Shown: positions 1 to 64,000 of the stretch, one piece after another
How the letters are laid out: each line of letters starts with the position of its first letter
Position numbering within the stretch: the first letter of the stretch is position 1
Source: Burkholderiales bacterium
GTDB taxonomy: Bacteria; Pseudomonadota; Gammaproteobacteria; Burkholderiales; Burkholderiaceae_C
Length of the DNA stretch: 64,000 nucleotides
Direction: 5' to 3'
Assembly (NCBI GenBank): GCA_016192425.1
Contig: JACPUE010000066.1
Coordinates: forward strand, 99,306-163,305
Program-made: the position numbers and the translations under genes
The notes under the pieces: model-generated
What the model was told of the DNA's origin: nothing
Seen by the model: the letters and a program-made list of their open reading frames with translations, nothing else
Database searches by the model: none

Positions 1-839
1 CCAAGGACCGCATCCAGATGCGTTCGCTGACCGGCCCCAAGGCCAAGGATCAGCCTGCCGACCCCATCATCGTGCACCCCGACGTGCGCAAGATGCTGCT
101 CACTGCCAAGGCCTACGCCGAAGGCGGCCGCGCGCTGGAAACCTTCTGCGCCATGCTGCTGGAAAAAGAGCACCACCACCCCGACGAGAAGGTGCGCAAG
201 GACAGCGGCGATCTGCTCGCGCTGCTCACCCCCATTGCCAAGGCCTTCCTGACCGACAACGGCCACATCGCCACCAATGCCTGCATGCAGGTGTTCGGCG
301 GCCATGGCTTCATCAAGGAATGGGGCATGGAGCAGTATGTGCGCGACAACCGCATCAACATGATCTACGAAGGCACCAACACCATCCAGTCGCTCGACCT
401 GCTGGGCCGCAAGGTGCTGTCGAACAACGGCGCCACGCTGAAGAAGTTCGGCAAGCTGGTCGGCCAGCTGGTGGCCGAGGAAGGCGTGAACGAGAAGATG
501 GCCGAGTTCATCAACCCCATCGCCTACCTGGGCGACCAGATGACCAAGTTCACCACCGAGATCGGCTTCAAGGGCTTCCAGAACCCCGACGAAGTGGGCG
601 CCGCCGCCGTGGACTACCTGCGCGTGGCGGGCCACCTGGTGTTCGGCTACTTCTTTGCCCGCATGGCCCAGGTCGCGCTGCGCAAGATCGCAGAGGGCAA
701 CCAGGACCCGTTCTACCAGGCCAAGCTGCAGACGGCGCGCTTCTACTTCGCCAAGCTCTTCCCCGAGACGGCAACGGCCATGCGCACGGCCCGCACCGGC
801 AGCAAGGTGCTGATGGATACCGATCTGGCACTGGCATAA
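1..839 (+). CDS. acyl-CoA dehydrogenase, C-terminal part (5' end lies outside the window)
   Basis: The reading frame is open from base 3. The translation matches acyl-CoA dehydrogenase C-terminal helical domains (…IYEGTNTIQSLDLLGRKV…). Confidence 0.8.
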   Translation, partial: KDRIQMRSLTGPKAKDQPADPIIVHPDVRKMLLTAKAYAEGGRALETFCAMLLEKEHHHPDEKVRKDSGDLLALLTPIAKAFLTDNGHIATNACMQVFGGHGFIKEWGMEQYVRDNRINMIYEGTNTIQSLDLLGRKVLSNNGATLKKFGKLVGQLVAEEGVNEKMAEFINPIAYLGDQMTKFTTEIGFKGFQNPDEVGAAAVDYLRVAGHLVFGYFFARMAQVALRKIAEGNQDPFYQAKLQTARFYFAKLFPETATAMRTARTGSKVLMDTDLALA

Positions 840-868
840 ATTTATATATAAAAATCAAGGAGACGCCC

Positions 869-1306
869 ATGAATAAAGCGCTAGCAGCTATCATTTTTGC
901 AGTGACTTCCGCCCCTTCATGGGCACAGATGACGCCGGAAGGCCTGTGGCGCAACGTCGATGACAAAACCGGCGAGGCCAAGGCCGAAATCCGCATCCAG
1001 GCCAACAATGCGGGTGTGCTGACCGGCGCCATCGAAAAGCGCCTGAGCAAGGAAGCCAAGCCTGAGGACGTCTGCAAGGAATGCGATGACGACCGCAAGG
1101 GCAAGCCGCTCCTGGGCCTGGAGATCATCCGTGGCGCCAGGAAGGCCGATGGCAAGGACGTGTGGGAGGGCGGCAAGATTCTCGACCCCGAGAACGGCCG
1201 CAACTACACGCTGCGCCTCACGCCCATTGAGGGTGGCAAAAAGCTCGAAGTGCGCGGCTCCATTGCCTTCATCGGCCGCACGCAGACCTGGGTGCGGGTG
1301 CAGTAA
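869..1306 (+). CDS. DUF2147-like small secreted protein
   Basis: ATG at 869 preceded by an AAGGAG RBS. N-terminal signal peptide MNKALAAIIFAVTSAPSWAQ. Lys/Glu-rich mature part. Confidence 0.6.
   Translation: MNKALAAIIFAVTSAPSWAQMTPEGLWRNVDDKTGEAKAEIRIQANNAGVLTGAIEKRLSKEAKPEDVCKECDDDRKGKPLLGLEIIRGARKADGKDVWEGGKILDPENGRNYTLRLTPIEGGKKLEVRGSIAFIGRTQTWVRVQ
872..905 (+). repeat. AT-rich palindromic motif copy (AAGCGCTAGCAGCTATC-W5-…); intragenic, within a signal peptide
   Basis: AATAAAGCGCTAGCAGCTATCATTTTTGCAGTG. Confidence 0.6.
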
Positions 1307-6623: not shown

Positions 6624-7448
6624 ATGACGACACCGCATTCCTTTGACCAGGCCCTGGTGCTCGACACCTTGGCCGAGGGCCACTACCGGGGCCAGACACA
6701 CCCAGCCTACTGGAACATGGTCGGGCCGTTCGGCGGCATCACCGCAGCCACGGCGCTGCGCGCCATTCTGTCGCACCCCCGGCTGCTGGGCGAGCCACTG
6801 TCGCTCACGGTCAACTACGCCGGGGCTCCCACCACCGGGCCGTTCACGGTCGATGCCACGCCGGTGCGCACCAACCGATCGACCCAACACTGGAACGTGT
6901 CCATCGTGCAGGCCGGTGCGGACGGCGAGCCCGTGGTCACCACCACGGCCACGGCGGTCACGGCGGCGCGCCGCGACACCTGGAGCCTGGCCGACATGCC
7001 CATGCCCGAGGTGCCCCGGCCCGACACGCTGCCGCCCGTGCCGCCGGTGCCGGGCGTCGAATGGTTCAACCGCTACGACCTGCGGCCCGTGGCCGGTGCC
7101 CTGCCCCGGCAGTGGAACGGCCAGGGCGACAGCAGCCTCACGCAGCTGTGGATGCGCAACACGCCCGAGCGTGCACTGGACTTCTGCGGACTGGCGGCGC
7201 TGGCCGACGTGTTCTTTCCGCGCGTATGGCTGCGCCGCGCCGTGCATGTGCCCGCGGGTACCGTGTCCATCACGGTGTACTTCCATGCCAGCGCGCCGCA
7301 ACTGCAGGCCACAGGCACGGGCTACGTGCTGGGCCAGGCGCGCGCGCAGGAATTTCGCAACGGCTTTTTCGACCAGACCGCCCAGCTGTGGAACGAGGCG
7401 GGCACCATGCTCGCCACCAGCCACCAGATCGTCTATTACAAAGAATGA
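6624..7448 (+). CDS. tesB: acyl-CoA thioesterase II (TesB-like)
   Basis: 274 aa with a double hotdog architecture. N-terminus is typical of TesB. Confidence 0.7.
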   Translation: MTTPHSFDQALVLDTLAEGHYRGQTHPAYWNMVGPFGGITAATALRAILSHPRLLGEPLSLTVNYAGAPTTGPFTVDATPVRTNRSTQHWNVSIVQAGADGEPVVTTTATAVTAARRDTWSLADMPMPEVPRPDTLPPVPPVPGVEWFNRYDLRPVAGALPRQWNGQGDSSLTQLWMRNTPERALDFCGLAALADVFFPRVWLRRAVHVPAGTVSITVYFHASAPQLQATGTGYVLGQARAQEFRNGFFDQTAQLWNEAGTMLATSHQIVYYKE

Positions 7449-7477
7449 GGGCCAGCGCGCCCTCGCAAGGATTTCCC

Positions 7478-8254
7478 ATGAGCGAACCGCAGAACGACAT
7501 CCTCGTGCACGCCGATGCAGGCGTCATGACCCTGACCTTCCACCGCGTGGACAAGAAGAACTCCATCACCCGCGCCATGTATGCGGCGCTGGCCGATGCG
7601 CTGGAAGCCGCAGCGCAGGACGCCAGCGTGCGCGTGGTGGTGCTGCAGGGCGACCCCACGGTCTTCAGCGCGGGCAACGACATTGGCGACTTCCTGCAGC
7701 AGCCACCGTCCTCGCAGGATTCGCCGGTGTTCCGCTTCCTGCGTGCCATTGCCAGCTTTCCCAAGCCCGTGGTCGCCGCCGTGTGCGGCCCGGCCGTGGG
7801 CATCGGCACGACCATGCTGTTCCACTGTGACCTGGTTTATGCGGGGGACAACGCGGCGTTTTCCATGCCCTTCGTCAACCTGGGCCTGTGCCCCGAGGCA
7901 GCGTCCAGCCTGCTGGCGCCCCAGTTGCTGGGCTACCACCGCGCCGCAGAGGCGCTGCTGCTGGGCGAGCCCTTCATGGCCGAGGCGGCGCTGGAGGTTG
8001 GGCTGGTCAACCGTGTGGTGCCGCCCACCGAATGCAACGCCGTGGCACAGGCGCAGGCGCGCAAGCTGGCCGCCAAGCCGCTGTCCGCCCTCGTCGAGAC
8101 CAAGCGCCTGATGAAGCTGGGGCAGACGGCCCCCGTGCTCGAACGCATGGCCACCGAGGGCGAGAGCTTCGGCCGCATGCTGGGGGAGCCCGCCGCCCGC
8201 GAAGCCTTCACCGCCTTCATGCAAAAGCGCAGGCCAGACTTCAGCCAGTGCTGA
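7478..8254 (+). CDS. enoyl-CoA hydratase/isomerase family protein
   Basis: Crotonase fold, including the FSAGNDIGDF motif. Confidence 0.8.
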   Translation: MSEPQNDILVHADAGVMTLTFHRVDKKNSITRAMYAALADALEAAAQDASVRVVVLQGDPTVFSAGNDIGDFLQQPPSSQDSPVFRFLRAIASFPKPVVAAVCGPAVGIGTTMLFHCDLVYAGDNAAFSMPFVNLGLCPEAASSLLAPQLLGYHRAAEALLLGEPFMAEAALEVGLVNRVVPPTECNAVAQAQARKLAAKPLSALVETKRLMKLGQTAPVLERMATEGESFGRMLGEPAAREAFTAFMQKRRPDFSQC

Positions 8255-8287
8255 AGGTTTTTGAACAAATTGGCCTCTGGGGCCCGT

Positions 8288-8326
8288 CAATAAAGCGTAA
8301 GCAGCTATCAAAATAATAGCAATTGC
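8288..8326 (+). repeat. AT-rich palindromic motif copy (intergenic)
   Basis: CAATAAAGCGTAAGCAGCTATCAAAATAATAGCAATTGC. Confidence 0.7.
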
Positions 8327-8353
8327 ATCATCAGGCACACGCCCGGCACTTCC

Positions 8354-16518: not shown

Positions 16519-17274
16519 ATGAGCTGGGATTGGCAGGTGTTCTGCGAGGACACGCTGACAAGGGAGGCGACGCAAGGCTGCTTTGGAAAAGGCGGCGACA
16601 TCACCTACCTGGACTGGATGCTGTCGGCATGGGGCTGGACTGTGTCAGTATCGTTATTAGCGCTGGTGCTGGCATTGGTCGTGGGGTCGCTGGTCGGCAC
16701 CTTGCGCACCTTGCCGGACAGGCCCATGGCGGTGCGCCTGGGCAATGCCTGGGTGGAGCTGTTTCGCAACATCCCGCTGCTGGTGCAGATTTTTGTCTGG
16801 TACCACGTGGTGCCCACCCTGTTCCCGGTGATGCGGGGCGTGTCCGGCTTTGTGCTGGTGGTGCTGGCGCTGGGTTTCTTTACCTCGGCGCGCATTGCCG
16901 AGCAGGTGCGCTCGGGCATCCAGGCCTTGCCGCGCGGCCAGCGCTATGCGGGCATGGCCATGGGTTTCACCACCTTCCAGACCTACCGCTATGTGCTGTT
17001 GCCCATGGCGTTTCGCATCATCATTCCGCCGCTGACCAGCGAGACGATGAACATCTTCAAGAACTCCTCGGTGGCCTTTGCCGTGTCGGTGGCCGAGCTG
17101 ACCATGTTCGCCATGCAGGCGCAGGAAGAAACCTCGCGCGGCATCGAGGTGTACCTGGCCGTCACGGGCCTGTACGTTGTCTCGGCCTTTGCCATCAACC
17201 GCATCATGGCCTTCATCGAAAAGCGCTCGCGTGTGCCCGGCCTGATCGTCGCCGGTGGATCGGGAGGGCACTGA
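16519..17274 (+). CDS. gltJ: amino-acid ABC transporter permease
   Basis: Polar amino-acid permease fold with the EAA-like loop …ARIAEQVRSGIQALPRGQ…. Confidence 0.85.
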   Translation: MSWDWQVFCEDTLTREATQGCFGKGGDITYLDWMLSAWGWTVSVSLLALVLALVVGSLVGTLRTLPDRPMAVRLGNAWVELFRNIPLLVQIFVWYHVVPTLFPVMRGVSGFVLVVLALGFFTSARIAEQVRSGIQALPRGQRYAGMAMGFTTFQTYRYVLLPMAFRIIIPPLTSETMNIFKNSSVAFAVSVAELTMFAMQAQEETSRGIEVYLAVTGLYVVSAFAINRIMAFIEKRSRVPGLIVAGGSGGH

Positions 17275-28481: not shown

Positions 28482-29312
28482 TCAGCGGTGGTAGCGCAGC
28501 ACAGTGTCGTGCAACAGCGCATCCAGCGTGGCGTGACTGGGTACGGGCAGTGGCTGCACAGGCTCGGCCGCATTGCGGGCCAGCTCGGCTTCGATAAAGG
28601 CATGGATGCCGGACCAGCGGGGGCTGGTGGCAGCCTCGTCGGCGCGCATCTTTATCTCCAGCAGTGCGTTGATCTCATCGACCAGCGCAGCGTCGTGCAC
28701 GGGGTGCAGCGTGTGCTGGGCCAGCTCGGCAAAGCGCATGGGCGGCACGCCGGGTTGCGTGCGGATCCAGCGTGCGGCCAGCAGCGGGCGCAGCACGTAC
28801 AAGTACTTTTTGTAGCGCACCTCGTCAGCTTGCAAATGCTCGCGGAAGTTCTTCTTGGCCATGGCCGCGTAGTGGTGCCAGCCCTTGGCGTTGGAGAACA
28901 CCTGCGCCGCCAGCGTGCGGAACTGCGCCATCGTGTCACCCTCTTCGCGGTACACGATGGGCGAGCCCAGCCATTCGAGCAGCGTGGGGTTGGATTCGCG
29001 CAGCAGCCCCAGCGCCTTGCGCAGGTCCCAACCGTTCACATCCAGGTCCCCACTGATTGGCAGCTCGATCACATCACGCCCCGGCGCAATGGTCAGGTAC
29101 CAGGGCAGCCGGTGCACGTAGATAAAGCGCACGTCGTAGTCGCTGTCGGGTGAGGCAAAGCCCCAGCCCCGGCTGCCAGATTCGCAGGCGAAGAGGACTG
29201 TCACGCCGTGCGTGGACTCGATGCGCTGCAGCTCCTGCATCACCTGTGCGCGCATGTGGGGCTCCACCGGGTGGGAGGAGCGCAGCATTTCCTGTTGGTC
29301 TGTTTTTTGCAT
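28482..29312 (-). CDS. DNA polymerase beta-superfamily nucleotidyltransferase of the RNA-repair-associated family
   Basis: GS…D.D motif (ACESGSRGWGFASPDSDYDVRF). Confidence 0.65.
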   Translation of the reverse strand: MQKTDQQEMLRSSHPVEPHMRAQVMQELQRIESTHGVTVLFACESGSRGWGFASPDSDYDVRFIYVHRLPWYLTIAPGRDVIELPISGDLDVNGWDLRKALGLLRESNPTLLEWLGSPIVYREEGDTMAQFRTLAAQVFSNAKGWHHYAAMAKKNFREHLQADEVRYKKYLYVLRPLLAARWIRTQPGVPPMRFAELAQHTLHPVHDAALVDEINALLEIKMRADEAATSPRWSGIHAFIEAELARNAAEPVQPLPVPSHATLDALLHDTVLRYHR

Positions 29313-29317
29313 AAAAT

Positions 29318-29365
29318 GAGCTGTATCGCTTGTTGGATAAGCGCTTGAAGCTATCAAAAGTGTAG
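29318..29365. repeat. AT-rich motif, inverted pair (intergenic, between rtcB and the nucleotidyltransferase gene)
   Basis: GAGCTGTATCGCTT-GTTGG-ATAAGCGCTTGAAGCTATCAAAAG. Confidence 0.7.
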
Positions 29366-29408
29366 TGAGCCAATAGTGCGGTGCTGTCACCAGCGCCGCA
29401 CAGGGCGG

Positions 29409-32822: not shown

Positions 32823-33125
32823 CGGCGGGTGGTCTTTCGACCGGTACTTCCAATCAAGGTCTTGCGACCGTGGGCAGGAATCGAACCTGCGACAGACCCC
32901 TTGCGGGGGTTGCTCTACCAGACTGAGCTACCAGTGGTGACACGCCTGGAGTCGCACCGGGCACGTCCTTTCGGAGTGGCTACTGCAGCCGTGCCGTTAT
33001 CCAGCGCTTGCGGTGTGCGGCATGCAGGGCATCGACAGGGACCGAAGGCCCCGGACTTCCGGCACCGGCGGGGCGGACTTCTGTCCCAACCCCGGCCTGT
33101 GAGCGGTCACCGCTTGCGCTGGATG
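32823..33125 (-). ncRNA. Y-RNA (YrlA)-like non-coding RNA containing a tRNA-like module, transcribed from a sigma-54 promoter
   Basis: No credible ORF. GC-rich and highly structured. Contains a canonical D-arm and T-arm (see the 32868–32945 feature). Confidence 0.4.
32868..32945 (-). other. tRNA-like module (canonical D-arm and T-arm, non-canonical anticodon region, imperfect acceptor pairing)
   Basis: Minus-strand read: …CCACTGG-TA-GCTC-AGTCTGGTA-GAGC-A-ACCCCCGCAAGGGGT-CTGTC-GCAGG-TTCGATT-CCTGC-CCACGGT…. Confidence 0.5.
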
Positions 33126-38181: not shown

Positions 38182-38644
38182 GAAGCACGCCAGACCGCCG
38201 CTGGTGCAATCTGGGAAACCAGGCACTGGAGGAACGTCCGGACTGCACAGGACAGCGTAGCAGCTAACGGCTGCCCACCGTGAGGTGAGGATCAGAGCAA
38301 CAGAGACGAGTCCGAGCGTGGATGTGCCCATCGGGTGTTCTGCGGTTCGCCAGCGCAAGCTGGCGCGGCTGGCGCAAGCCAGACGGTGACGGGCGAAAGC
38401 CCGGCACGACGCAGCCACCCCGGGTGCGAAGCGCCCGGGGTGAAACGGGCAATCTCTACGCGCAGCAATACCAAGTAGGCCAGCCACGGGAGCAGGGCGA
38501 CCTCTCTCGACCTTGTGGATCCGCAGGGAGAGCTGGCGGGTAGGTAGCACCGAGCCGGGTGGGCGACCCCCGGCCCAGAGTAATGGCGGTCACGCTGCGG
38601 GCAACCGCAGTGCACAGAATCCGGCTTATCGGCGCGCTTCACAC
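38182..38644 (+). ncRNA. rnpB: RNase P RNA (bacterial type A)
   Basis: P4/universal elements are present: GGAGGAACGTCCGGAC…, GGGGTGAAACGGG…, ACAGAATCCGGCTTATCGG. A P1 helix pairs GAAGCACGCC with GGCGCGCTTC. Confidence 0.8.
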
Positions 38645-38664
38645 TTTACAAGCAAAAAATGGCT

Positions 38665-38709
38665 CCAACGCTTATGGAATAAGCGCTGGCAGCTATCATT
38701 TTTGAAATT
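38665..38709. repeat. AT-rich motif, inverted pair (intergenic, just 3' of rnpB)
   Basis: CCAACGCTTAT-GG-AATAAGCGCTGGCAGCTATCATTTTTG. Confidence 0.7.
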
Positions 38710-39898
38710 CTTGCGGGCAATGTGGCGCCTGCCCCTGCTGCAGCGCGCGGGCGCGCTCCACGGTGTCGGGGTGGCTGCTCAGCAGCGACCAGATCGGGTG
38801 CGCGGCCTCGGCGCGGCCCTGTTTTGGGGGCGCGGGCTGGCTGGCGCCGGGTGTCTTGCCCTTGCCTTCCTCTTCTTCGTCCTTGTCGTGCGCAATGGCC
38901 AGCAGCAGCGTGCCCATGGGCGCGGTGGGCAGGGCGGTGTGGCGCATGAGGCCGATGGCGAAGCAGTCGGCCTCGCGCTCGTGGTTGCGGCGGTAGTGCA
39001 GGCCGGTGAGCAGTGCGCTGCCCGTGGACAGCACGCCCGACACATCGCCCAGCGCCAGCCCCAAGCCCATTTGCAGCACGCCTTGCTCCACCACCATGCG
39101 CGTGGTGTGGCGGTGCACCACATGGCCGATTTCGTGCGCCAGCACGCCCACCAGCGCGTCGTCGTCCAGGCCCTGCCGGGCGGCGCTTTGCACCAGGGCG
39201 TCGGTCATCACCACCTGCCCGCCGGGCAGGGCGAAGGCGTTGGCGGGCATGCCGGAGCGGAACTCCAGCCGCAGCCGCGGCGCGTAGCCGGGGTAGCGCT
39301 GCAGCGCAGGCGGAATCTGCAGTGCCAGCGCATCAAAACGTGCACGCAGCTGGGCCTGGCGCTCGGGCGGCAGCTTGCTGGGCTTGAGCAGGCCATCGTC
39401 CATCTGCTGCAGGCCCTGGTCGGCCAGTGCGGTTTCCCAGCCCACAGGCACCCAGTGCGTGAGCTGCGTGGCCATCCACGGTGTGCCGTAGCGGTAGAAC
39501 AGGGTCAGCCCGATGGCGGCGGCCAGCAGCGCCGCCAGCAGCACGCTCCAGCGCGTCTGCATGTGCTGCGCCAGGCCGGGGCGTGCGCCCGCGGCGGCCA
39601 GGGCGGCGTGCCAGGCGGGCACGGCGTCAATCTCCAGGCTGCCGTGGTCGCGCAGGTCCACCACCACGCGCGCCTGGGGGCGGCGCGCGTTCCAGGCCTC
39701 GGGCCAACCCACGTCCTGGTGGGCAAACACCACCGGCGCCACGCCCGGCGCCGACAGCGGATGCAGGCTCAGCGACGGCCCCCGGGCCGTGGGCTGCAGG
39801 CCCACCAGCACCGGTCGAGCCTGGCTGCTGCGCCCATCAAACCAGTGCCCCGGCAGCAGGTCGCCGGGTGCGTTGGTGGATTGGTGAGAGCTGTTCAT
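38696..39898 (-). CDS. M48-family metallopeptidase
   Basis: HEIGHVVHRH motif with a downstream glutamate. Confidence 0.8.
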   Translation of the reverse strand: MNSSHQSTNAPGDLLPGHWFDGRSSQARPVLVGLQPTARGPSLSLHPLSAPGVAPVVFAHQDVGWPEAWNARRPQARVVVDLRDHGSLEIDAVPAWHAALAAAGARPGLAQHMQTRWSVLLAALLAAAIGLTLFYRYGTPWMATQLTHWVPVGWETALADQGLQQMDDGLLKPSKLPPERQAQLRARFDALALQIPPALQRYPGYAPRLRLEFRSGMPANAFALPGGQVVMTDALVQSAARQGLDDDALVGVLAHEIGHVVHRHTTRMVVEQGVLQMGLGLALGDVSGVLSTGSALLTGLHYRRNHEREADCFAIGLMRHTALPTAPMGTLLLAIAHDKDEEEEGKGKTPGASQPAPPKQGRAEAAHPIWSLLSSHPDTVERARALQQGQAPHCPQEFQK

Positions 39899-42229: not shown

Positions 42230-43894
42230 TCAGTTGTTGCCGGGCTGCTGCGCGCGGATGCGCTCCACATGCGCGATCAGCGAGCGCTGGGCCAGCGGCC
42301 ACATGCGTGGCGGCACGTCGGCGTAAGCCAGTTCCACCCACTGCTCCACCGTGCCTTCGGGCAGTGCCTGCATGGCGGCGATGACCTTGGCCTCGCGCGC
42401 CAGGCGGTGGCCCTTGAGCTGGGCGATGGCGCCGCGTGCCTCGCCCAGCACATGGCCGTGCGCGGGCAGGATGAACGCCACGCCGTGTTCGGCGCAGAGC
42501 GCATCGAGCCGGTCGAGCGCGTCGAGGTAGTCGGCCATGTTGCCGTCGGGCGGGTTGATGATGGTGGTGCTGCCGTTGAGGATGTGGTCGCCACTGAACA
42601 GCAGGCCGTCCTCGCGCAGCAGCAGGCACACATGGTTGGCCGCGTGGCCCGGCGTGTGCACCACCTGCAGGGTGTGGGTGATTTCGCCGTCCAGCCCTTT
42701 GCCAGTAAGCGTGAGCAGCTCATTGTTTGATAGCGCCCGGTCGGGCGTGAACTGGCTGTCAGCGCGCGCCGTGGGGGCCGAGGGCAGGCCCAGGATGGGC
42801 GGCGTGGCGCGGCCCGCGCGCTGGCACATCTGCTGCAGCGGCTTGCTGCCTGGCGAGTGGTCGGGGTGCGAATGCGTGCATACGATCATGCGGATGTCGC
42901 CGCCCGCGGCGCGCCACAGGCGCTCCAGGTGCTCGACGTCTGCCGGGCCGGGGTCGATGGCGACGTAGCCCGTGGCCGGGTCGCCCACCAGGTAGCTGTT
43001 GGTGCCGGGGCCGGTCATCACGCCGGGGTTGGGGGCGGTCAGGCGCTGCACGTTCTTCAGCAGCGGCACGGCGCGCTCGCTCTGCCAGTCGAGCGGGTGG
43101 GCGATCTGCCCGTCGGGGCAAACCAGGGCCAGCTCGCCGAAGGGCATTTCGTCCTCCATGTAGCGCGCTTCCTTGCCATTGAGCAGGCCCGCGCGCGGGC
43201 AGCTCGTCCACAGCGGGGCTTCGCTCACGGCGCAGGCGGCCAGCACATCGTCCACGCGCGCGAAGGGCGCCAGCCGCTGCAGCGTGCGGATGGTCGGGAA
43301 GATCATGAAGAAGCCGCCGCCCGCGTGGCGCTCCAGGGCGTCCTGCGGGCGCACCCATTGGGGCTCGAACTGCTCGGCCTCGTCGGCCACGGGCGTCTGG
43401 CCTTCGGGCATGCGCGCCACCAGAAACGGCACATCAAAGCGCTTGGGCAGGTCGCGGTCGGTGATCCAGCGCGCCAGGGTGAACACCCCGTCGGCGGCCA
43501 GCCGCAGGCCGCGCGCCTGGCATTGTGCGGCGAACGGGGCCTGGCGGTCGAGCGCGGCGATGTCGTCGGCCCCGGCCCAGCGGCCATCGGCATGGCGCGC
43601 CAGCAGCACGCCCAGCTCCTCGAAGCTCTCGCGGATGGCGGCAATGGCCTCGGTGAGCTGTTCGTCGCCCTGCGTGGCGCGGCGTGCGGCGGCGTGGTGC
43701 GATTGTGTGTCCAGCGCGTCGATGCCGCCGCCGGGGAACACGTAGGCGCCCGGCGCAAAGCTGGCTTGCTGCGAGCGCCGCGTCATCAGCACCTCCAGCC
43801 CCTGCGCGCCATCGCGCAGCAGCAGCACGGTGGCGGCGTTCAGGGTGGGGACGGGGGGGCGGGGCGGGTGCAGGAGCTGGCTGGGGCGTGTCAT
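42230..43894 (-). CDS. NUDIX hydrolase fused to an MBL-fold metallo-hydrolase
   Basis: Nudix box …AIRESFEELGV…. C-terminal HSHPDH and HTPGH motifs. Confidence 0.7.
   Translation of the reverse strand: MTRPSQLLHPPRPPVPTLNAATVLLLRDGAQGLEVLMTRRSQQASFAPGAYVFPGGGIDALDTQSHHAAARRATQGDEQLTEAIAAIRESFEELGVLLARHADGRWAGADDIAALDRQAPFAAQCQARGLRLAADGVFTLARWITDRDLPKRFDVPFLVARMPEGQTPVADEAEQFEPQWVRPQDALERHAGGGFFMIFPTIRTLQRLAPFARVDDVLAACAVSEAPLWTSCPRAGLLNGKEARYMEDEMPFGELALVCPDGQIAHPLDWQSERAVPLLKNVQRLTAPNPGVMTGPGTNSYLVGDPATGYVAIDPGPADVEHLERLWRAAGGDIRMIVCTHSHPDHSPGSKPLQQMCQRAGRATPPILGLPSAPTARADSQFTPDRALSNNELLTLTGKGLDGEITHTLQVVHTPGHAANHVCLLLREDGLLFSGDHILNGSTTIINPPDGNMADYLDALDRLDALCAEHGVAFILPAHGHVLGEARGAIAQLKGHRLAREAKVIAAMQALPEGTVEQWVELAYADVPPRMWPLAQRSLIAHVERIRAQQPGNN
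42706..42738 (+). repeat. AT-rich motif copy inside the NUDIX–MBL gene
   Basis: AGTAAGCGTGAGCAGCTCATTGTTTGATAGCGC. Confidence 0.6.
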
Positions 43895-44854: not shown

Positions 44855-45733
44855 ATGCAGATCCGCTTTACCAAGATGCAGGGTGCGGGCAATGACTTTG
44901 TCGTGCTCGACGAGACCCAGGAACGCCTGGGGCTCACGCCCGCGCATTACCGCTTTCTGGCCGACCGCCACTTCGGCGTGGGGGCCGACCAGATCCTGAC
45001 CGTGCGCCCCGCGCCTGCGCCGGGCCTGGACTTTGAATACGTGATCCACAACGCCGACGGCGGCGAGGTGGAGCAGTGCGGCAACGGCGCGCGCTGCTTT
45101 GCGCGCTATGTGCGCGACAAGGGGCTCACCGCCAAGGACCGCATCCGCGTGCAGACGCTGTCGGGCGTGATCGCACCCGAACTCACCCCCGACGGCCGCG
45201 TCACCGTGGACATGGGCCGCCCGCAGTTCGACCCGGCGCGCGTGCCCTTCGACGCTGCAGGCCTGGTGCCCGTGCCCCAGGGTTTGGGGCAAAAATGGCC
45301 TCTTGCGCTGGATGGGCAAGCGCAGGCAGCTACTGTTTTGATAGCGGTTGTCTCGATGGGCAACCCGCATGCCGTGCAACTGGTGGAGGACGTGGACACC
45401 GCCCCGGTGGCGCAGACCGGCCCGCTCATCGAGTGCCACACCCGTTTTCCGCAGCGCGTGAACGCGGGCTACCTGCAAGTGGTGGACCGCAGCCATGTGC
45501 GCCTGCGCGTGTACGAGCGCGGTGCGGGCGAAACCCTGGCCTGCGGTACCGGCGCCTGCGCGGCCGTGGCGGCGGGCATCCGCCTGGGGCTGCTCGATGC
45601 GCGCGTGGACGTGCAGACGCGCGGCGGCCTGGTCACCATCGCCTGGAGCGGCCAGGAGGCCGACTCCGTGTTCCTCACCGGCCCCGCCGTGACCGTGTTC
45701 GAAGGCCAGATCGACATTCCCGACGCACCATGA
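44855..45733 (+). CDS. dapF: diaminopimelate epimerase
   Basis: Collinear with E. coli DapF (…GNDF…VVSMGNPH…CGTGACA…). Confidence 0.9.
45301..45347 (+). repeat. AT-rich motif copy inside dapF
   Basis: CTTGCGCT…CAAGCGCAGGCAGCTACTGTTTTGATAGCGG. Confidence 0.6.
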
Positions 45734-47620: not shown

Positions 47621-48841
47621 ATGAAAACGATCCGACTCAAGCCCGGCAAAGAGCGCTCGCTGCAGCGCCGCCATCCCTGGATTTTTGAAAGCGCCATCGC
47701 CAAGGGCGGCGGCGACAGTGGCGAGACGGTGCGCGTGGAGTCGCACGAGGGCCAGTTTCTGGCCTGGGCGGCGTTCAGCCCGAGTTCGCGCATCCGAGCG
47801 CGGGTGTGGAGTTTTGACGAAGCGCAGCGTATTGATGCTCCGTTTTTTGTAGCTGCTTGCGCTCGTGCAGTAAGCGCTAGAGCCCGGTTTGATATACAAA
47901 GCGACGGTGTGCGCCTGGTGCACGGCGAGTCGGACGGTCTGCCCGGTCTGGTGGTGGACCGCTATGGCGACACGCTGGTCGCGCAGTTCACCAGCGCGGG
48001 CACGGAGCGCTGGAAGGGCGTGCTGGCCGATGCGCTCTTGCAGGCCACGGGCCTGGCGCGCCTGTACGAGCGCTCGGACGCCAGCGTGCGCCAGCTCGAA
48101 GGGCTGGAGAGCAGCACCGGCTGGCTGCGCGGCGGCCCGGCGGCCGGGGGTGAGGCGCCCCCGCTGGAGTTGGCGATCCACGAGCACCAGTGGCTTCTCA
48201 CGCTCAACATCGCCGAGGGCCACAAGACCGGTTTCTACCTGGACCAGCGCGACAGCCGCAAGCGTTTTGCCGACTGCGTGCAGCGCCTGGGGCTGCGCCG
48301 TGTGCTCAACTGCTATTGCTATACCGGGGGCTTTTCGGTGGCGGCGCTGGCGGGCCAGCGCGCGGCCGGGGTGGAGGACGGCGAGGTGGTGTCCATCGAC
48401 TCGTCTGGCCCGGCGCTGGAGCGCGCGCGCGCGCATGTGGCACTCAATGGCTTCGACGCCGCGCGTGCCACGTTTCTGGATGCCGACGTGAACGCCTCGC
48501 TGCGCCAGTTTCTGCGCGAAGGGCGGCGCTTTGACGCCATCGTGCTCGACCCGCCGAAGTTCGCCCCCACGGTCACGCACGCCGAACGCGCCGCGCGCGC
48601 CTACAAGGACATCAACCGCCTGGCGCTGCAGCTGCTGGAGCCCGGCGGTGTGCTCTACACCTTCTCGTGCTCGGGCGGCATCAGCGCCGACCTGTTCCAC
48701 AAGATCGTCGCATCGGCCGGGGCCGATGCCGGGGTGGATGGCTATATCCTGGAGCGCCTGGGTGGGGCGCCCGACCACCCCATGACACTGGAATTCCCCG
48801 AAGGGGAATACCTCAAGGGCCTGGCCGTGATGCGCAAGTGA
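47621..48841 (+). CDS. rlmI: 23S rRNA (cytosine1962-C5)-methyltransferase
   Basis: Collinear with E. coli RlmI (…HKTGFYLDQRD…RVLNCYCYTGGFSV…DPPKF…). Confidence 0.85.
   Translation: MKTIRLKPGKERSLQRRHPWIFESAIAKGGGDSGETVRVESHEGQFLAWAAFSPSSRIRARVWSFDEAQRIDAPFFVAACARAVSARARFDIQSDGVRLVHGESDGLPGLVVDRYGDTLVAQFTSAGTERWKGVLADALLQATGLARLYERSDASVRQLEGLESSTGWLRGGPAAGGEAPPLELAIHEHQWLLTLNIAEGHKTGFYLDQRDSRKRFADCVQRLGLRRVLNCYCYTGGFSVAALAGQRAAGVEDGEVVSIDSSGPALERARAHVALNGFDAARATFLDADVNASLRQFLREGRRFDAIVLDPPKFAPTVTHAERAARAYKDINRLALQLLEPGGVLYTFSCSGGISADLFHKIVASAGADAGVDGYILERLGGAPDHPMTLEFPEGEYLKGLAVMRK
47842..47897. repeat. AT-rich motif, inverted pair inside rlmI (in-frame)
   Basis: TTTTTTGTAGCTGCTTGCGCT-CGTGC-AGTAAGCGCTAGAGC…GGTTTGATATAC. 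Uses codons atypical for the host. Confidence 0.65.
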
Positions 48842-48846
48842 GCACG

Positions 48847-48897
48847 AATGCTATAAAAATAATAGCTGCTTGCGCATGATGTGAAAGCGCTAGAGGC
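48847..48897. repeat. AT-rich motif, inverted pair (intergenic, between rlmI and zigA)
   Basis: GCTATAAAAATAATAGCTGCTTGCGCATGATG…GAAAGCGCTAGAGGC. Confidence 0.7.
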
Positions 48898-48994
48898 ACA
48901 AATCACTCAAATTTCATACAGCCCCTGCGCACAGGGGCTTGACAGCTCGGCTACAGTTTTTGGGTTGTCTCCCGAATTTCTCCCAAGGCTTCTC

Positions 48995-53503: not shown

Positions 53504-53513
53504 GTACACTGAG

Positions 53514-53553
53514 TTGCTATTGAATTGATAGCTGCTTGCGCTTGATTGACGGG
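53514..53553 (-). repeat. AT-rich motif copy (intergenic, between hslV and hslU)
   Basis: Reverse complement CCGTCAATCAAGCGCAAGCAGCTATCAATTCAATAGCAAC is nearly identical to the copy at 8288. Confidence 0.75.
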
Positions 53554-53585
53554 CGCTATGTACCGATTTGATTGGAATTTTCTCC

Positions 53586-54908
53586 ATGTCTTCCATGACC
53601 CCCCAGGAAATCGTTTCCGAGCTGGACCGCCACATCGTCGGCCAGTCCAAGGCCAAGCGGGCCGTGGCCATTGCGCTGCGCAACCGCTGGCGCCGCCAGC
53701 AGGTGCAAGAGCCCCTGCGCCACGAAATCACGCCCAAGAACATCCTCATGATCGGCCCCACGGGCGTGGGCAAGACCGAAATCGCGCGGCGCCTGGCACG
53801 CCTGGCCGATGCGCCCTTCATCAAGGTCGAGGCCACCAAGTTCACCGAGGTGGGCTATGTGGGCAAGGACGTGGACACCATCATCCGCGACCTGATGGAA
53901 GTGGCCGTCAAGCAGGAGCGCGAGGTGCAGACGCGCCAGGTGCGCACGCGCGCCGAAGACGCGGCCGAGGAGCGCATCCTGGACGTGCTCATCCCCGTGG
54001 CGCGCGCCCCTGGCAGCGAGCCGCCGCCCGACAGCACCGCGCGCCAGGTGTTCCGCAAAAAGCTGCGCGAGGGCCAGTTGGACGACAAGGAAATCGAGAT
54101 CGAACTGGCCGAGGCCCGCCCGCAGCTCGAAATCATGGGCCCCGCAGGCATGGAGGACATGGCCGAGCAGCTGCGCGGCATGTTTAGCCAGATGGGGCAG
54201 GGTAAGCGCAAGGCGCGCAAGCTCAGCATTGCCGAAGCGCGGCGCCAGCTCGTCGAGGAAGAAGCGGCCAAGCTGGTCAACGAGGAAGAGATCAAGCAGC
54301 GCGCCCTGCTCAGCGCCGAGCAGAATGGCATCGTCTTCATCGACGAGATCGACAAGGTGGCCGCGCGCCAGGAGAGCAGCGGCGCCGATGTCTCGCGCCA
54401 GGGTGTGCAGCGCGACCTGCTGCCGCTGGTGGAAGGCACCACGGTGCACACCAAGTACGGCATGGTCAAGACCGACCACATCCTGTTCATTGCCTCCGGC
54501 GCCTTCCACCTGGCCAAGCCCAGCGACCTGATTCCCGAGCTGCAGGGGCGCTTCCCGATCCGCGTGGAGCTCGATTCGCTCTCGGTGCAGGACTTTGAAG
54601 CCATCCTCACGCAGACACACGCCTCGCTGGTGCGCCAGTACCAGGCGCTGCTGGCCACCGAGGGCGTGGCGCTGGAGTTCACGCCCGAAGGCATCACGCG
54701 CCTGGCGCACATTGCCTTTGAAGTGAACGAGCGCACCGAAAACATTGGCGCGCGCCGCCTGGCCACGGTGATGGAGCGTTTGCTCGACGAGGTGAGTTTT
54801 GACGCCGCGCACCGCGCGGGCCAGACGGTGGTCATCGACGCAGCCTACGTCGATGCGCGCCTGCAGGCCCTGTCGCAAGACGAAGACCTCTCGCGCTTCA
54901 TTCTGTAA
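53586..54908 (+). CDS. hslU: ATP-dependent protease ATPase subunit HslU
   Basis: …[21 protein letters not shown]…[17 protein letters not shown]…. Confidence 0.95.
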
Positions 54909-61560: not shown

Positions 61561-62739
61561 ATGCTGATGTGGCTGGCCCAATGGCTGCAGGGGCTGTCGC
61601 CCGAGTTCGGGTTCTTGCGCGTGTTCCAGTACCTCACGCTGCGTGCGGTGCTGGGCGCCATGACGGCGCTGCTCATCGGTCTTCTGGCCGGGCCTGCCGT
61701 GATCCGGCGGCTGACGGCGCTGAAGATCGGGCAGCCCATCCGCACCAACGGCATGGAAACGCACCATGTCAAAAGCGGCACGCCCACCATGGGCGGCGTG
61801 CTCATTCTGCTGGCCATTGCCATCTCCACCCTGCTGTGGGCCGACCTGTCCAACCGTTTTGTCTGGATCGTGCTCATCGTCACGCTGGGCTTTGGCGCCA
61901 TCGGCTGGGCCGACGACTGGCGCAAGGTGGTCTACAAAGACCCCAACGGCATGCCCTCGCGCGAGAAGTACCTGTGGCAGTCGCTCATCGGGCTGGCGGC
62001 GGCGCTGTACCTGGTGTTCAGCATTTCGGAAAGCTCCAACCTCAAGGTGCTGGAGCTGTTCTTTTCGTGGGTGCGATCAGGGTTTGACGTGAACCTGCCC
62101 CCCAAGGCGGGCCTGCTGGTGCCGTTCTTCAAGGAGGTCAGCTACCCGCTGGGGGTGCTGGGCTTCGTCATCCTGACCTACCTGGTCATCGTGGGCTCCA
62201 GCAACGCGGTCAACCTGACGGACGGCCTGGACGGCTTGGCCATCATGCCCGTGGTCATGGTGGGCTCGGCGCTGGGCGTGTTTGCCTACGTGGCGGGCAG
62301 CGCGGTGTATTCCAAATACCTGTTCTTCCCGCACATTCCGGGCGCGGGCGAACTGCTGATCTTCTGCTCCGCCATGGCGGGCGCGGGCCTGGCCTTCCTG
62401 TGGTTCAACACGCATCCGGCGCAGGTGTTCATGGGCGACGTGGGCGCGCTGGCGCTGGGCGGTGCCCTGGGCACCATTGCCGTCATCGTGCGCCAGGAAA
62501 TCGTGCTGGCCATCATGGGCGGCATCTTCGTGGTCGAGGCGCTGTCGGTCATGCTGCAGGTGAGCTGGTTCAAGTACACCAAGCGCAAGTACGGCGAAGG
62601 CCGGCGCCTGCTCAAGATGGCGCCGCTGCACCACCACTTCGAGAAAAACGGCTGGAAGGAAACGCAGGTGGTCGTGCGTTTCTGGATCATCACCATGCTG
62701 CTGTGCCTCATCGGCCTGTCCACATTAAAACTGCGATGA
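61561..62739 (+). CDS. mraY: phospho-N-acetylmuramoyl-pentapeptide transferase
   Basis: Ten-TM protein with …[13 protein letters not shown]…. Confidence 0.95.
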
Positions 62740-64000
62740 ATCCGCTGGACGAGCCGCTCCCCCCACCCGCCGAAGGCGTGCCTGCCGAGGCTGCGCCCGC
62801 CACGGCCCCGGCGCCCCAGCACGAGCTGCCGCAAACCCTGGACGCCGCGCGCGAGGCCGCGGCCTTTGTGGCGCGCATCTTTGCCGAGACGCCGGTGTCC
62901 GAACCCGGTGCAGACGCCGCCGAGCCCGCAGCGCCCGAGCCTGCGGCCGAGGAACAGACCGCTGCTTCAGACCCCGTGCCCGCAGGCTGGCCGTTGGGGG
63001 GCGGCAAGCTCCTGCAGGACCAGGCCGTGCTGGTGCTGGGCCTGGGCGCGTCGGGCCTGGCCATGGCGCGCTGGTGCGTGCGCTGCGGCGCCCAGGTCAC
63101 CGTGGCCGACACGCGCGAGGCGCCGCCGCAACTGGCGCAGCTGCACGCCGAACTGCCGCAGGCACGCTTTGTGGCCGGAGCCTTTACCGAGGCCTTGCTC
63201 GACGGCGCAGCCTACAGCGCGGTGTACCGCTCGCCCGGCCTGGCACCGCAGGCCATTGCTCCTATTTTTATAGCTGCTAGCGCACGTGGAATAAGCGTTG
63301 GCGGCGAAATTGACCTGTATTCCAGCGCCCTGCATGCGCTGCGCGCTGCCCATGGCTACGCGCCCGCCGTGCTGGCCATCACCGGCACCAACGGCAAGAC
63401 CACGGTGACCTCGCTCACCGGCAAGCTGGTGGCGCATGCGGGCAAGTCGGTGGCGGTGGCAGGCAACATCGGCCCCACGCTGCTGGACACCCTGGCCGAG
63501 CGCATCGACGCAGGCCAGCTGCCCGAAGCCTGGGTGCTGGAGCTGTCGAGCTTTCAGCTGGACGGCGTGCGCGGCTTCGAGCCCACGGCGGCGGCGGTGC
63601 TCAACGTCACCCAGGACCACCTGGACTGGCACGGCGACATGGCCGCCTACGCCGCCGCCAAGGCACGCATCTTTGGCGAGCAGGCCCTGATGGTGCTCAA
63701 CCGCGACGATGCGCTGGTGATGCACATGCTGCCGCCGCCCGGCCGCCCGAAGGCGGCAGCAGCCCCCTTGGGGGGCAGCGCAGCACACGCAGTGGCAAGC
63801 GTGGGGGCGCCGTCCATGCCGCCGCCAGTGAGGCAGAGGCTGCAAAAGGCACAGCACCGCGCCCATGTGACCTTTGGCGCAGACATGCCGCAGCGGCCGG
63901 GCGATTTCGGCATCGAGGCCGTCAACGGCATGGCCTGGCTGGTGCGCGCGCAGGAGGCCGACGAAACCCTGCGCCGCAGCAAGAACGCCGAGGAGGAGCT
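62736..64000 (+). CDS. murD: UDP-N-acetylmuramoylalanine–D-glutamate ligase, with a ~95-aa Pro/Ala-rich N-terminal extension (3' end lies outside the window)
   Basis: GTNGKTT P-loop. The ATG overlaps the mraY stop. Confidence 0.85.
63258..63305. repeat. AT-rich motif, inverted pair inside murD (in-frame)
   Basis: CCTATTTTTATAGCTGCTAGCGCA-CGTGG-AATAAGCGTTGGCGGC. Confidence 0.65.

Follow-up and report, generated by a model that had tools for sequence, protein, structure and literature searches.

How can one AT-rich palindromic DNA element come to lie, in the same orientation and reading frame, within two unrelated bacterial genes? The question was raised by a stretch of 64,000 nt (hereafter the window) from a Burkholderiales bacterium (GenBank assembly GCA_016192425.1, contig JACPUE010000066.1, positions 99,306 to 163,305 of the forward strand). 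An earlier note, made from the letters of this stretch, had placed such an element within rlmI (47842-47897) and within murD (63258-63305). Here, we find that these two segments are members, embedded in coding sequence, of a repeat family dispersed in Comamonadaceae, together with a segment of dapF and a weak one in the gene of a metallo-beta-lactamase (MBL)-fold hydrolase. The genic copies are overprints on homologous codons and leave the length of the genes unchanged. The window has a GC content of 66% and its best protein matches are in metagenome-assembled genomes (MAGs) that are labelled as Burkholderiales or as Giesbergeria; Simplicispira and Acidovorax come next. For comparison, we sampled 80 rlmI loci from GTDB species representatives, plus eight murD loci; these loci carry L-numbers in what follows.

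Copies of a dispersed repeat within genes

We built a profile from the six copies that lie between genes in the window (starting at 832, 8255, 29300, 38636, 48843 and 53505; Table 1). When the 64 kb were searched with this intergenic-only profile, the only further significant matches were in murD (30.2 bits, E 1.3e-8), dapF and rlmI (22.1 bits, E 4.7e-6, nhmmer). The dapF copy, which is not part of the model, scores 23.3 bits (E 1.9e-6). The fourth genic copy, in the MBL-fold gene (Pfam Lactamase_B), has an E-value of about 0.03 with our first model, also aligns to the intergenic-only model, and is matched at the orthologous position in seven other loci. In total, the window holds 10 copies in 64 kb, i.e. 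about one per 6-7 kb.

The core TAGCTGCT[T/A]GCGC begins at 47850 in rlmI and at 63271 in murD. In both genes the start of the core falls on codon position 2 (GTA GCT GCT in rlmI and ATA GCT GCT in murD). Hence, the two copies have identical orientation and frame, as had been claimed, and both are significant matches to the profile. The two segments are identical at 44 of 66 nucleotides and at 14 of 20 third codon positions. The earlier claim of near-identical peptides overstates a likeness of 9 residues in 20. Each segment coincides with a local GC trough within its gene: the GC content at third codon positions (GC3) is 0.25 in the rlmI segment against 0.83 in the gene, and 0.30 against 0.84 in murD.

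The earlier note had also listed forward half-copies at 872, 45301 and 16642, which were said always to fall in the same frame. The one at 45301 turned out to be part of the full, reverse copy in dapF, and the one at 872 belongs to the copy that lies over the start and signal peptide of a DUF2147 gene. The one at 16642 was not detected by any of our models. The rule of a single frame does not hold either, since the weak MBL-fold copy is read in another frame than those of rlmI and murD.

The resemblance lies in the DNA

A match between coding segments and an intergenic profile might be a coincidence, produced by chance and by conservation at the protein level. In favour of this explanation, conservation of the MurD pattern AA.A.G+.+.G.IDL extends to Pseudomonas, and the RlmI helix pattern FF..A..RA..AR.RF is found family-wide. 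We therefore used two controls. First, we made 1000 synonymous recodings of each native peptide, drawing on the codon usage of the genome. These sequences scored at most 1.9 bits for rlmI, 5.9 bits for murD and 9.0 bits for dapF, against 22-30 bits for the native sequences, and in no gene did any of the 1000 recodings reach the native score. It is thus on rare codons ending in A or T (ATA, GCT, AGA, CGA, TTT) that the match depends. Second, in 100 windows shuffled inside 60-nt blocks the top score was 10.1 bits. The genic resemblance sits in the DNA and is not a by-product of the peptides.

The codons of the segment are also conserved. Motif-bearing rlmI genes have a GC3 of 0.25-0.38 in the segment, compared with about 0.8 in the remainder of the gene. 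We compared codons in 177 pairs of rlmI genes with less than 80% protein identity. Among conserved residues, 54% have the same A/T-ending codon in the segment and 7% elsewhere. Codon identity outside the segment is 0.54, near the 0.46 given by codon bias alone, and the highest-ranking 20-codon window of the whole gene begins at residue 71. This shows that the genic copies are conserved at the level of codons.

The earlier note had stated that finding the same peptide without the DNA motif in orthologues from distant taxa would speak for conservation of the protein and against a DNA-driven effect. In motif-free taxa, the IAAC/IAAS..IS peptide is missing and the positions are occupied by related but different residues with GC-rich codons. 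The note's own refutation test therefore favours a DNA-level cause, which the dependence of the motif on atypical A/T-ending codons also supports. Given in addition the shared third positions of rlmI and murD, the explanation by chance and protein conservation is refuted by the recoding and codon analyses. It is excluded for rlmI and murD, and we regard it in general as barely credible.

Genic copies change sequence but not length

The earlier note held that the element had been overwritten or inserted. Insertion would be the classical case: a mobile palindromic element enters a gene in frame, as in Rickettsia, and is then tolerated. Such an origin agrees with the intergenic members of the family, which are true insertions or deletions, and with the resemblance of the family to small non-autonomous elements. 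It is contradicted by the lengths of the orthologues. There is no gap at the segment among 120 RlmI and 120 MurD homologues. The RlmI block from RARVW to HGESD has 47 residues in all 69 genomic loci, and the DapF block has 34 amino acids with the motif and without it. Compared with motif-free Comamonadaceae, rlmI, dapF and murD show no length change, and no target duplication was seen. Moreover, the residues beneath the element are homologous to those of outgroups. MurD of P. aeruginosa (Protein Data Bank) has TPALVQAAAKGVRISGDIDLF, which aligns ungapped, residue for residue, to the MurD segment of the window. The E. coli RlmI is colinear with that of the window, with identity in the segment restricted to ID..FF. 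The earlier description of such outside orthologues as unrelated is thus wrong for MurD.

One observation in dapF could still speak for insertion. In the region of the segment, DapF of Comamonadaceae is about 11 aa longer than gamma-proteobacterial DapF; the extra length is also present in motif-free Comamonadaceae. For rlmI and murD insertion is excluded, and as an account of the genic copies in general it is very unlikely. Of the two verbs in the earlier proposal, overwritten stands and inserted falls: the genic copies are length-neutral overprints on homologous codons.

The places where these overprints lie are permissive. In the AlphaFold model of RlmI the segment forms a helix (residues 73-90) and not the surface loop that the earlier note had considered, and its residue variability is above average. 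Among the closest RlmI relatives there is an excess of amino-acid differences in the segment, which is inflated by recounting a few private changes of the window and which we take solely as a sign of low protein constraint.

Anatomy of the element and its intergenic copies

The element is about 65-70 nt long, AT-rich, and an imperfect palindrome throughout, with the consensus TTGCTAT-(A/T-rich)-ATAGCTGC-TWGCGC-loop-GCGCWA-GAGGCC-ATTT. Its first module is a 17-bp palindrome, GCTAY-N7(A/T-rich)-RTAGC. On the 3' side of this palindrome come TGC, a hairpin of 7-11 bp, and then AGAGGCC followed by an A/T run. The motif GCT-N11-AGC with an A/T-rich centre is invariant in the intergenic, rlmI and dapF sets alike. 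Within (A/G)TAGC the AGC is invariant and the T nearly so, while the first base is mostly A and less often G. Searching the window with the core returns essentially just full copies. No Rfam family matched the window at the gathering score, nor did any match the surroundings of the best-formed copy at E-values up to 10. Literature searches with core strings of the element retrieved no paper. With no published description found, the best reading is that of an undescribed family similar to repetitive extragenic palindromic (REP) sequences or miniature inverted-repeat transposable elements (MITE).

Table 1. Copies of the element in the 64-kb window, in order of position.
Feature	Position	Strand	Score (bits)	Context
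Copy at a gene start	832..915	-	55.1	Covers the upstream gene's stop (839) and the beginning of the DUF2147 gene (866-1306)
Intergenic copy	8255..8332	-	57.0	Begins 1 nt past the stop of the enoyl-CoA hydratase gene (7445-8254)
Intergenic copy	29300..29378	-	47.6	Between rtcB (stop 29409) and an RlaP-family gene (Pfam)
Intergenic copy	38636..38720	-	53.9	Between the RNase P RNA and an M48 peptidase gene (3' end)
Genic copy, MBL-fold hydrolase	42676..42740	-		Weak, partly decayed; gene on - strand, copy in gene-sense orientation; encodes ..NELLTLTGKGLDGE..
Genic copy, dapF	45283..45351	-		Gene about 44855-45733 on + strand; copy antisense to the gene
Genic copy, rlmI	47835..47899	+		Gene 47621-48841; residues about 72-93, encoding DAPFFVAACARAVSARARFDIQ; gene-sense orientation
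Intergenic copy	48843..48920	+	48.5	Begins 2 nt past the rlmI stop; upstream of the promoter-like GGGGCTTGACA..GCTACA of a cobW-like gene
Intergenic copy	53505..53588	+	56.1	Fills the hslV-hslU spacer (neighbours by Pfam)
Genic copy, murD	63252..63322	+		Gene starts at 62736 and extends past the window end; gene-sense orientation

Intergenic copies begin 0-10 nt from a stop codon and occur in either orientation. The spacer between rlmI and the cobW-like gene allowed us to compare genomes at a single site (loci L001-L076). Depending on the genome, this spacer has the element on the + strand, on the - strand, or not at all, with a difference in length of about 70 nt. In the element-free spacers, the stop is directly followed by the conserved promoter-like GGGGCTTGACA...GCTACACT. 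Intergenic copies are therefore true insertions or deletions. No obvious target-site duplication was found at the rlmI spacer. Other copies have been kept for long: the copy of the hslV-hslU spacer is at the orthologous place in L001, L002, L003, L004, L006 and L015 (at about 11.1-12.1 kb of the loci), in several genera, and some intergenic copies are therefore very old.

Two intergenic copies are worth a separate mention. In the copy at 832..915, the reverse strand of the left arm of the element encodes the ATG and the signal peptide MNKALAAIIFAV of the DUF2147 gene (Pfam), so an element may have supplied the start of this gene. The copy at 38636..38720 is the best-formed hairpin of the window (fold of -21.6 kcal/mol, z -4.8), and its distance to the 3' end of the RNase P RNA (class A, 165 bits; 38182-38644) is a few nucleotides at most. 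We considered intrinsic termination as a role for the element and rejected it: none of the copies within 44-64 kb was flagged by the terminator scan, and most hairpins of the window are weak. The promoter scan did not flag the element copies either.

Hairpins are maintained between genes and not within them

In the 28 intergenic copies that we aligned, 5 of the 9 stem pairs of the hairpin show compensatory changes. Covariation is 0.24, compared with 0.157 in shuffles (exceeded in 0 of 500), and 74% of the cells are paired, against at most 49% when the stem is slid. The orthologous series of rlmI and dapF show no covariation and a pairing of 54-59%, and the folds of the genic hairpins are weak (z -0.6 to -1.8). 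For these three reasons we rejected selection on an RNA hairpin within genes. With GCT-N11-AGC invariant in all three sets, this module resembles a site recognised by a protein more than it does an RNA stem.

These results also bear on an explanation in which the genic segments have a site-specific function in the mRNA. AT-rich hairpins of rare codons would make translation or mRNA processing slower, or regulate it, where domains meet, and their likeness to the repeat would be secondary. The three strong genic copies are indeed clusters of rare codons at or near domain boundaries, that of RlmI after the PUA domain in the structural model. Going by the solved structures, the segment lies at the end of domain 1 in MurD and between the domains in DapF. 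However, codon rarity does not explain a match of 60 nt to an intergenic profile, and the dapF copy is oppositely oriented. The weak genic pairing is not maintained, and several lineages without the motif have an unchanged protein architecture. We consider an mRNA function improbable as the reason why the segments are kept.

Genic and intergenic copies tend to occur together

Members of Giesbergeria, Simplicispira, Acidovorax, Verminephrobacter, Rhodoferax, Polaromonas and Curvibacter have the motif in rlmI, dapF and murD at matching codons. In rlmI it is present at the same codons in 24-27 other genomes, in dapF in 22 genomes, and in murD in 7 of the 8 orthologous loci, the codons being GC-rich instead in Comamonas. 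Variovorax, Ramlibacter, Caenimonas, Pseudacidovorax and Comamonas are without the motif and have GC-rich codons and different residues, e.g. FFAARCRAAVQARGLF. In the tree of RlmI, motif-bearing and motif-free lineages are interleaved.

The genic copies co-occur with the intergenic family. Loci with the motif in rlmI contain 23 other copies in 264 kb, compared with 13 in 515 kb at motif-free loci (Fisher exact test, p 0.0013, on loci that are not phylogenetically independent). The states of rlmI and dapF are concordant in 43 of 53 loci, which are likewise not phylogenetically independent. A genic copy also tends to be slightly closer to the intergenic members of the genome it sits in than to those found elsewhere (23 of 29, p about 9e-4). 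Some variants of the sequence are also common to the copies of a lineage: in the Rhodoferax/Polaromonas group they have an AAGGGC form, which changes Ser to Arg in RlmI.

Three of the sampled loci have peculiarities of their own. In a Polaromonas MAG (L035, 10228-10290), a short-chain dehydrogenase gene has an in-frame copy encoding ..DAINTVAACAINTLGSAHF.., in the codon phase of rlmI and murD; the element thus affects additional genes elsewhere in the family. A Rhodoferax MAG (L012, about 373-530) has a dapF with an in-frame TAA within the stretch homologous to the element, and this is either a pseudogene or an assembly error. L036 (CALRUM020000009.1) is titled as a MAG of Asaia bogorensis, yet it has rlmI and dapF of Comamonadaceae type with the element. 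This bin is probably mislabelled or contaminated.

How the genic copies may arise and persist

The explanation that we favour, with a probability of about one half, is that a REP/MITE-like family overprints permissive coding stretches in place and that the result is then maintained at the nucleotide level. The motif would have been written in place, with no change of length, where the ancestral peptide already resembled a translation of the element. The stretches concerned would be the RlmI helix after the PUA domain, the helix and strand that end domain 1 of MurD, and the inter-domain strands of DapF. Afterwards, the motif would be held at the nucleotide level, with rare A/T-ending codons persisting across genera and the protein being pulled toward the residues encoded by the element (IAAC/IAAS...IS). 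Maintenance would operate neither via RNA pairing nor via protein function, and we infer purifying selection on how the primary sequence is recognised by a trans-acting protein specific to the family, which might be transposase-like or a host DNA-binding factor. The invariant GCT-N11-AGC module would be the likely target of such a protein, and candidate substrates for this putative reader of the signal are GCTATCAAAATGATAGC or the full element.

Homogenisation could produce a similar picture with no function at all. In this explanation, genic sites that look like the element are repeatedly converted by intergenic copies, by ectopic gene conversion or by template switching at quasi-palindromes, and the proteins tolerate the outcome. 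Genic and intergenic copies of one genome do share lineage-specific variants, such as AGC GCA in rlmI and dapF of Polaromonas glacialis, or the AAGGGC variants of the Rhodoferax/Polaromonas group. The change is length-neutral, the genic copies are dispensable in L005 and L015, and the covariation of intergenic arms can come from template-switch repair. The copies, however, are 55-70% identical, with perfect runs of just about 13 nt. Identity this short falls below the minimal homology required for conversion of the RecA type. In addition, conversion of whole elements would bring along their loops, some of which have stops, whereas genic copies combine two motif-like arms with a loop that is free and in frame. 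Finally, compensation between arms is not seen in the genic series. Overall, we judge homogenisation rather unlikely; either a recognising protein or a homogenising drive may maintain the copies.

Several points weigh against overprinting followed by maintenance through recognition. One comes from two lineages (L005 and L015) that retain intergenic copies and yet have rlmI segments that are fully GC-recoded. A lineage can thus do without the genic copies, and any selection for them has to be weak or conditional. A trans-acting factor was not found: tblastn with the verified E. coli RayT against about 1 Mb of the window and related loci gave nothing below E 0.018, and no Comamonadaceae RAYT was found in the plasmid collection. 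A cupin open reading frame (ORF) between two inverted copies in L035 was considered as the transposase and ruled out, as it is not one. Overprinting would also require about 20 directed substitutions to have built up at each genic site, for which it offers no route. The tree, which is that of a single gene (RlmI), fits one origin of the motif or several. In the region of the DapF segment, there may have been an old small insertion. Two more points concern the measures themselves. The motif-bearing group of the codon statistics was defined with two short motif patterns, i.e. partly by the motif itself. The greater similarity of genic and intergenic copies within a genome may partly come from base composition.

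Comparison with known systems

Palindromic elements in the genes of Rickettsia (RPE), reportedly described by Ogata et al. in 2000, are a close precedent. Work on them is cited in passages of PMC1779305 and PMC10969869. Like the present family, RPEs are dispersed palindromic repeats found between genes and in frame within conserved genes, where their peptides are tolerated and have orthologous copies in related species. Unlike it, they are insertions of 100-150 bp that add 30-50 residues, whereas the present copies have about 65 nt, add no residues and lie over homologous codons.

REP and REPIN elements of E. coli and Pseudomonas are mobilised by RAYT transposases, and REPs are extragenic by definition. 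The present element has in common with them a short imperfect palindrome and compensatory changes in the stem; its conserved head, (A/G)TAGC with mostly A at the first base, may correspond to the GTAG of REP. Further similarities are copies placed directly after stops in either orientation, a consensus specific to the lineage, and whole lineages devoid of the family. The differences are that at least 3-4 of the present copies are inside genes, that about 1 Mb of loci yielded no RAYT, and that an additional 17-bp palindrome precedes the hairpin on its 5' side. The intergenic copies, and these only, also resemble MITEs, being discrete insertions with presence/absence polymorphism in which the whole element is an imperfect palindrome.

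The uptake signals of Haemophilus (uptake signal sequences, USS) and Neisseria (DNA uptake sequences, DUS) have cores of 9-12 nt and a density of about one per kb. They are the basis of another explanation, in which the motif accumulates in situ by biased uptake and recombination, with lineage dialects. As with USS and DUS, coding sequences contain motifs that originated in situ and without indels, in permissive places and reading frames, and related species share these positions. The lineage-specific variants here recall their genus-level dialects, and copies just past genes form hairpins as their pairs do. In contrast, the present element is a composite of about 65 nt whose arms are unlike each other. 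It occurs merely once per 6-7 kb in the window, and single half-sites are not in surplus over full copies. Its intergenic copies are indels, whereas uptake signals arise by point mutation. An uptake signal is accordingly a highly improbable explanation.

Two published cases of repeats within coding sequences were also compared. The beta-proteobacterial repeat elements (BRE; Hot et al. 2011, PMC3110155) are about 90 bp long, have 69% GC and are often in tandem, as variable-number tandem repeats. They were reported in Comamonadaceae (Polaromonas JS666, Delftia, Acidovorax), mostly between genes, with some wholly in coding sequences (PMC3110155). We rejected an identity with BRE, which is GC-rich, of about 90 bp and tandem, whereas the present element is AT-rich, of about 65 nt and single-copy at each site. 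In the mitochondrial genes of Nematomorpha there are coding palindromes (PMC6649704). There too, inverted repeats are superimposed on conserved coding sequence without disrupting it, and forces acting on the DNA shape the protein. Those palindromes, unlike the present ones, are long, perfect, gene-specific and organellar, and do not belong to a dispersed family shared with intergenic DNA.

A copy in an integron cassette, and other features

A copy of the element is present in the orfF/gcuF cassette (DUF1010, PF06231) of the dfrA12-orfF-aadA2 array of class 1 integrons, with 41.6 bits and E 6.6e-13 for the intergenic-only model. We located it at 3995-4064 of L089 (pCTX-M3, NC_004464.2, at about 66.7 kb). 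BLAST matches to the element occur in about 1750 enterobacterial plasmids of PLSDB, mostly in sequences annotated as DUF1010. Positions 1-23 of the DUF1010 profile have a weak match to one translated chromosomal copy (E 0.17). Therefore, at most a part of the DUF1010 family derives from the repeat; the idea that DUF1010 as a whole is a translation of the element was dropped, this weak match being confined to positions 1-23. These data suggest a Comamonadaceae-like chromosome as the source of the cassette, and that a "protein family" is in part the translation of a repeat. The orfF/gcuF ORF may be partly spurious.

In murD, a Pro/Ala/Glu-rich N-terminal extension of about 90 residues (62736-63010) precedes the Rossmann domain. 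The start of the gene overlaps the stop of mraY, and the length of the extension varies widely among homologues (proteins of 345-578 aa). A tRNA gene lies at 32871-32933.

Consequences for genes and genomes

Dispersed bacterial repeats are usually viewed as extragenic insertions. Here, a single family is present as indels between genes and as overprints inside housekeeping genes. It is conceivable, though we hold it as a tentative idea that leans towards the doubtful, that the repeat family and a putative recognition factor actively stamp their sequence onto coding DNA, and do so with no indels. Stretches of amino acids in RlmI, MurD and DapF, and probably in other proteins, would then be dictated by a non-coding DNA signal, and this in essential enzymes throughout a bacterial family. 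If this were true, changes of the signal by lineage, for instance from AGC to AGG with Arg in place of Ser in RlmI, would drive protein evolution, and length-neutral overprinting would be a mode of repeat spread distinct from transposition. In annotation, and in scans of codon usage or of the ratio of nonsynonymous to synonymous substitution rates (dN/dS), such stretches would wrongly pass for DNA gained by horizontal transfer, or for proteins evolving in a relaxed or unusual way. The family provides a natural system to study how far a DNA-level signal dictates the sequence of proteins, and what reads this signal.

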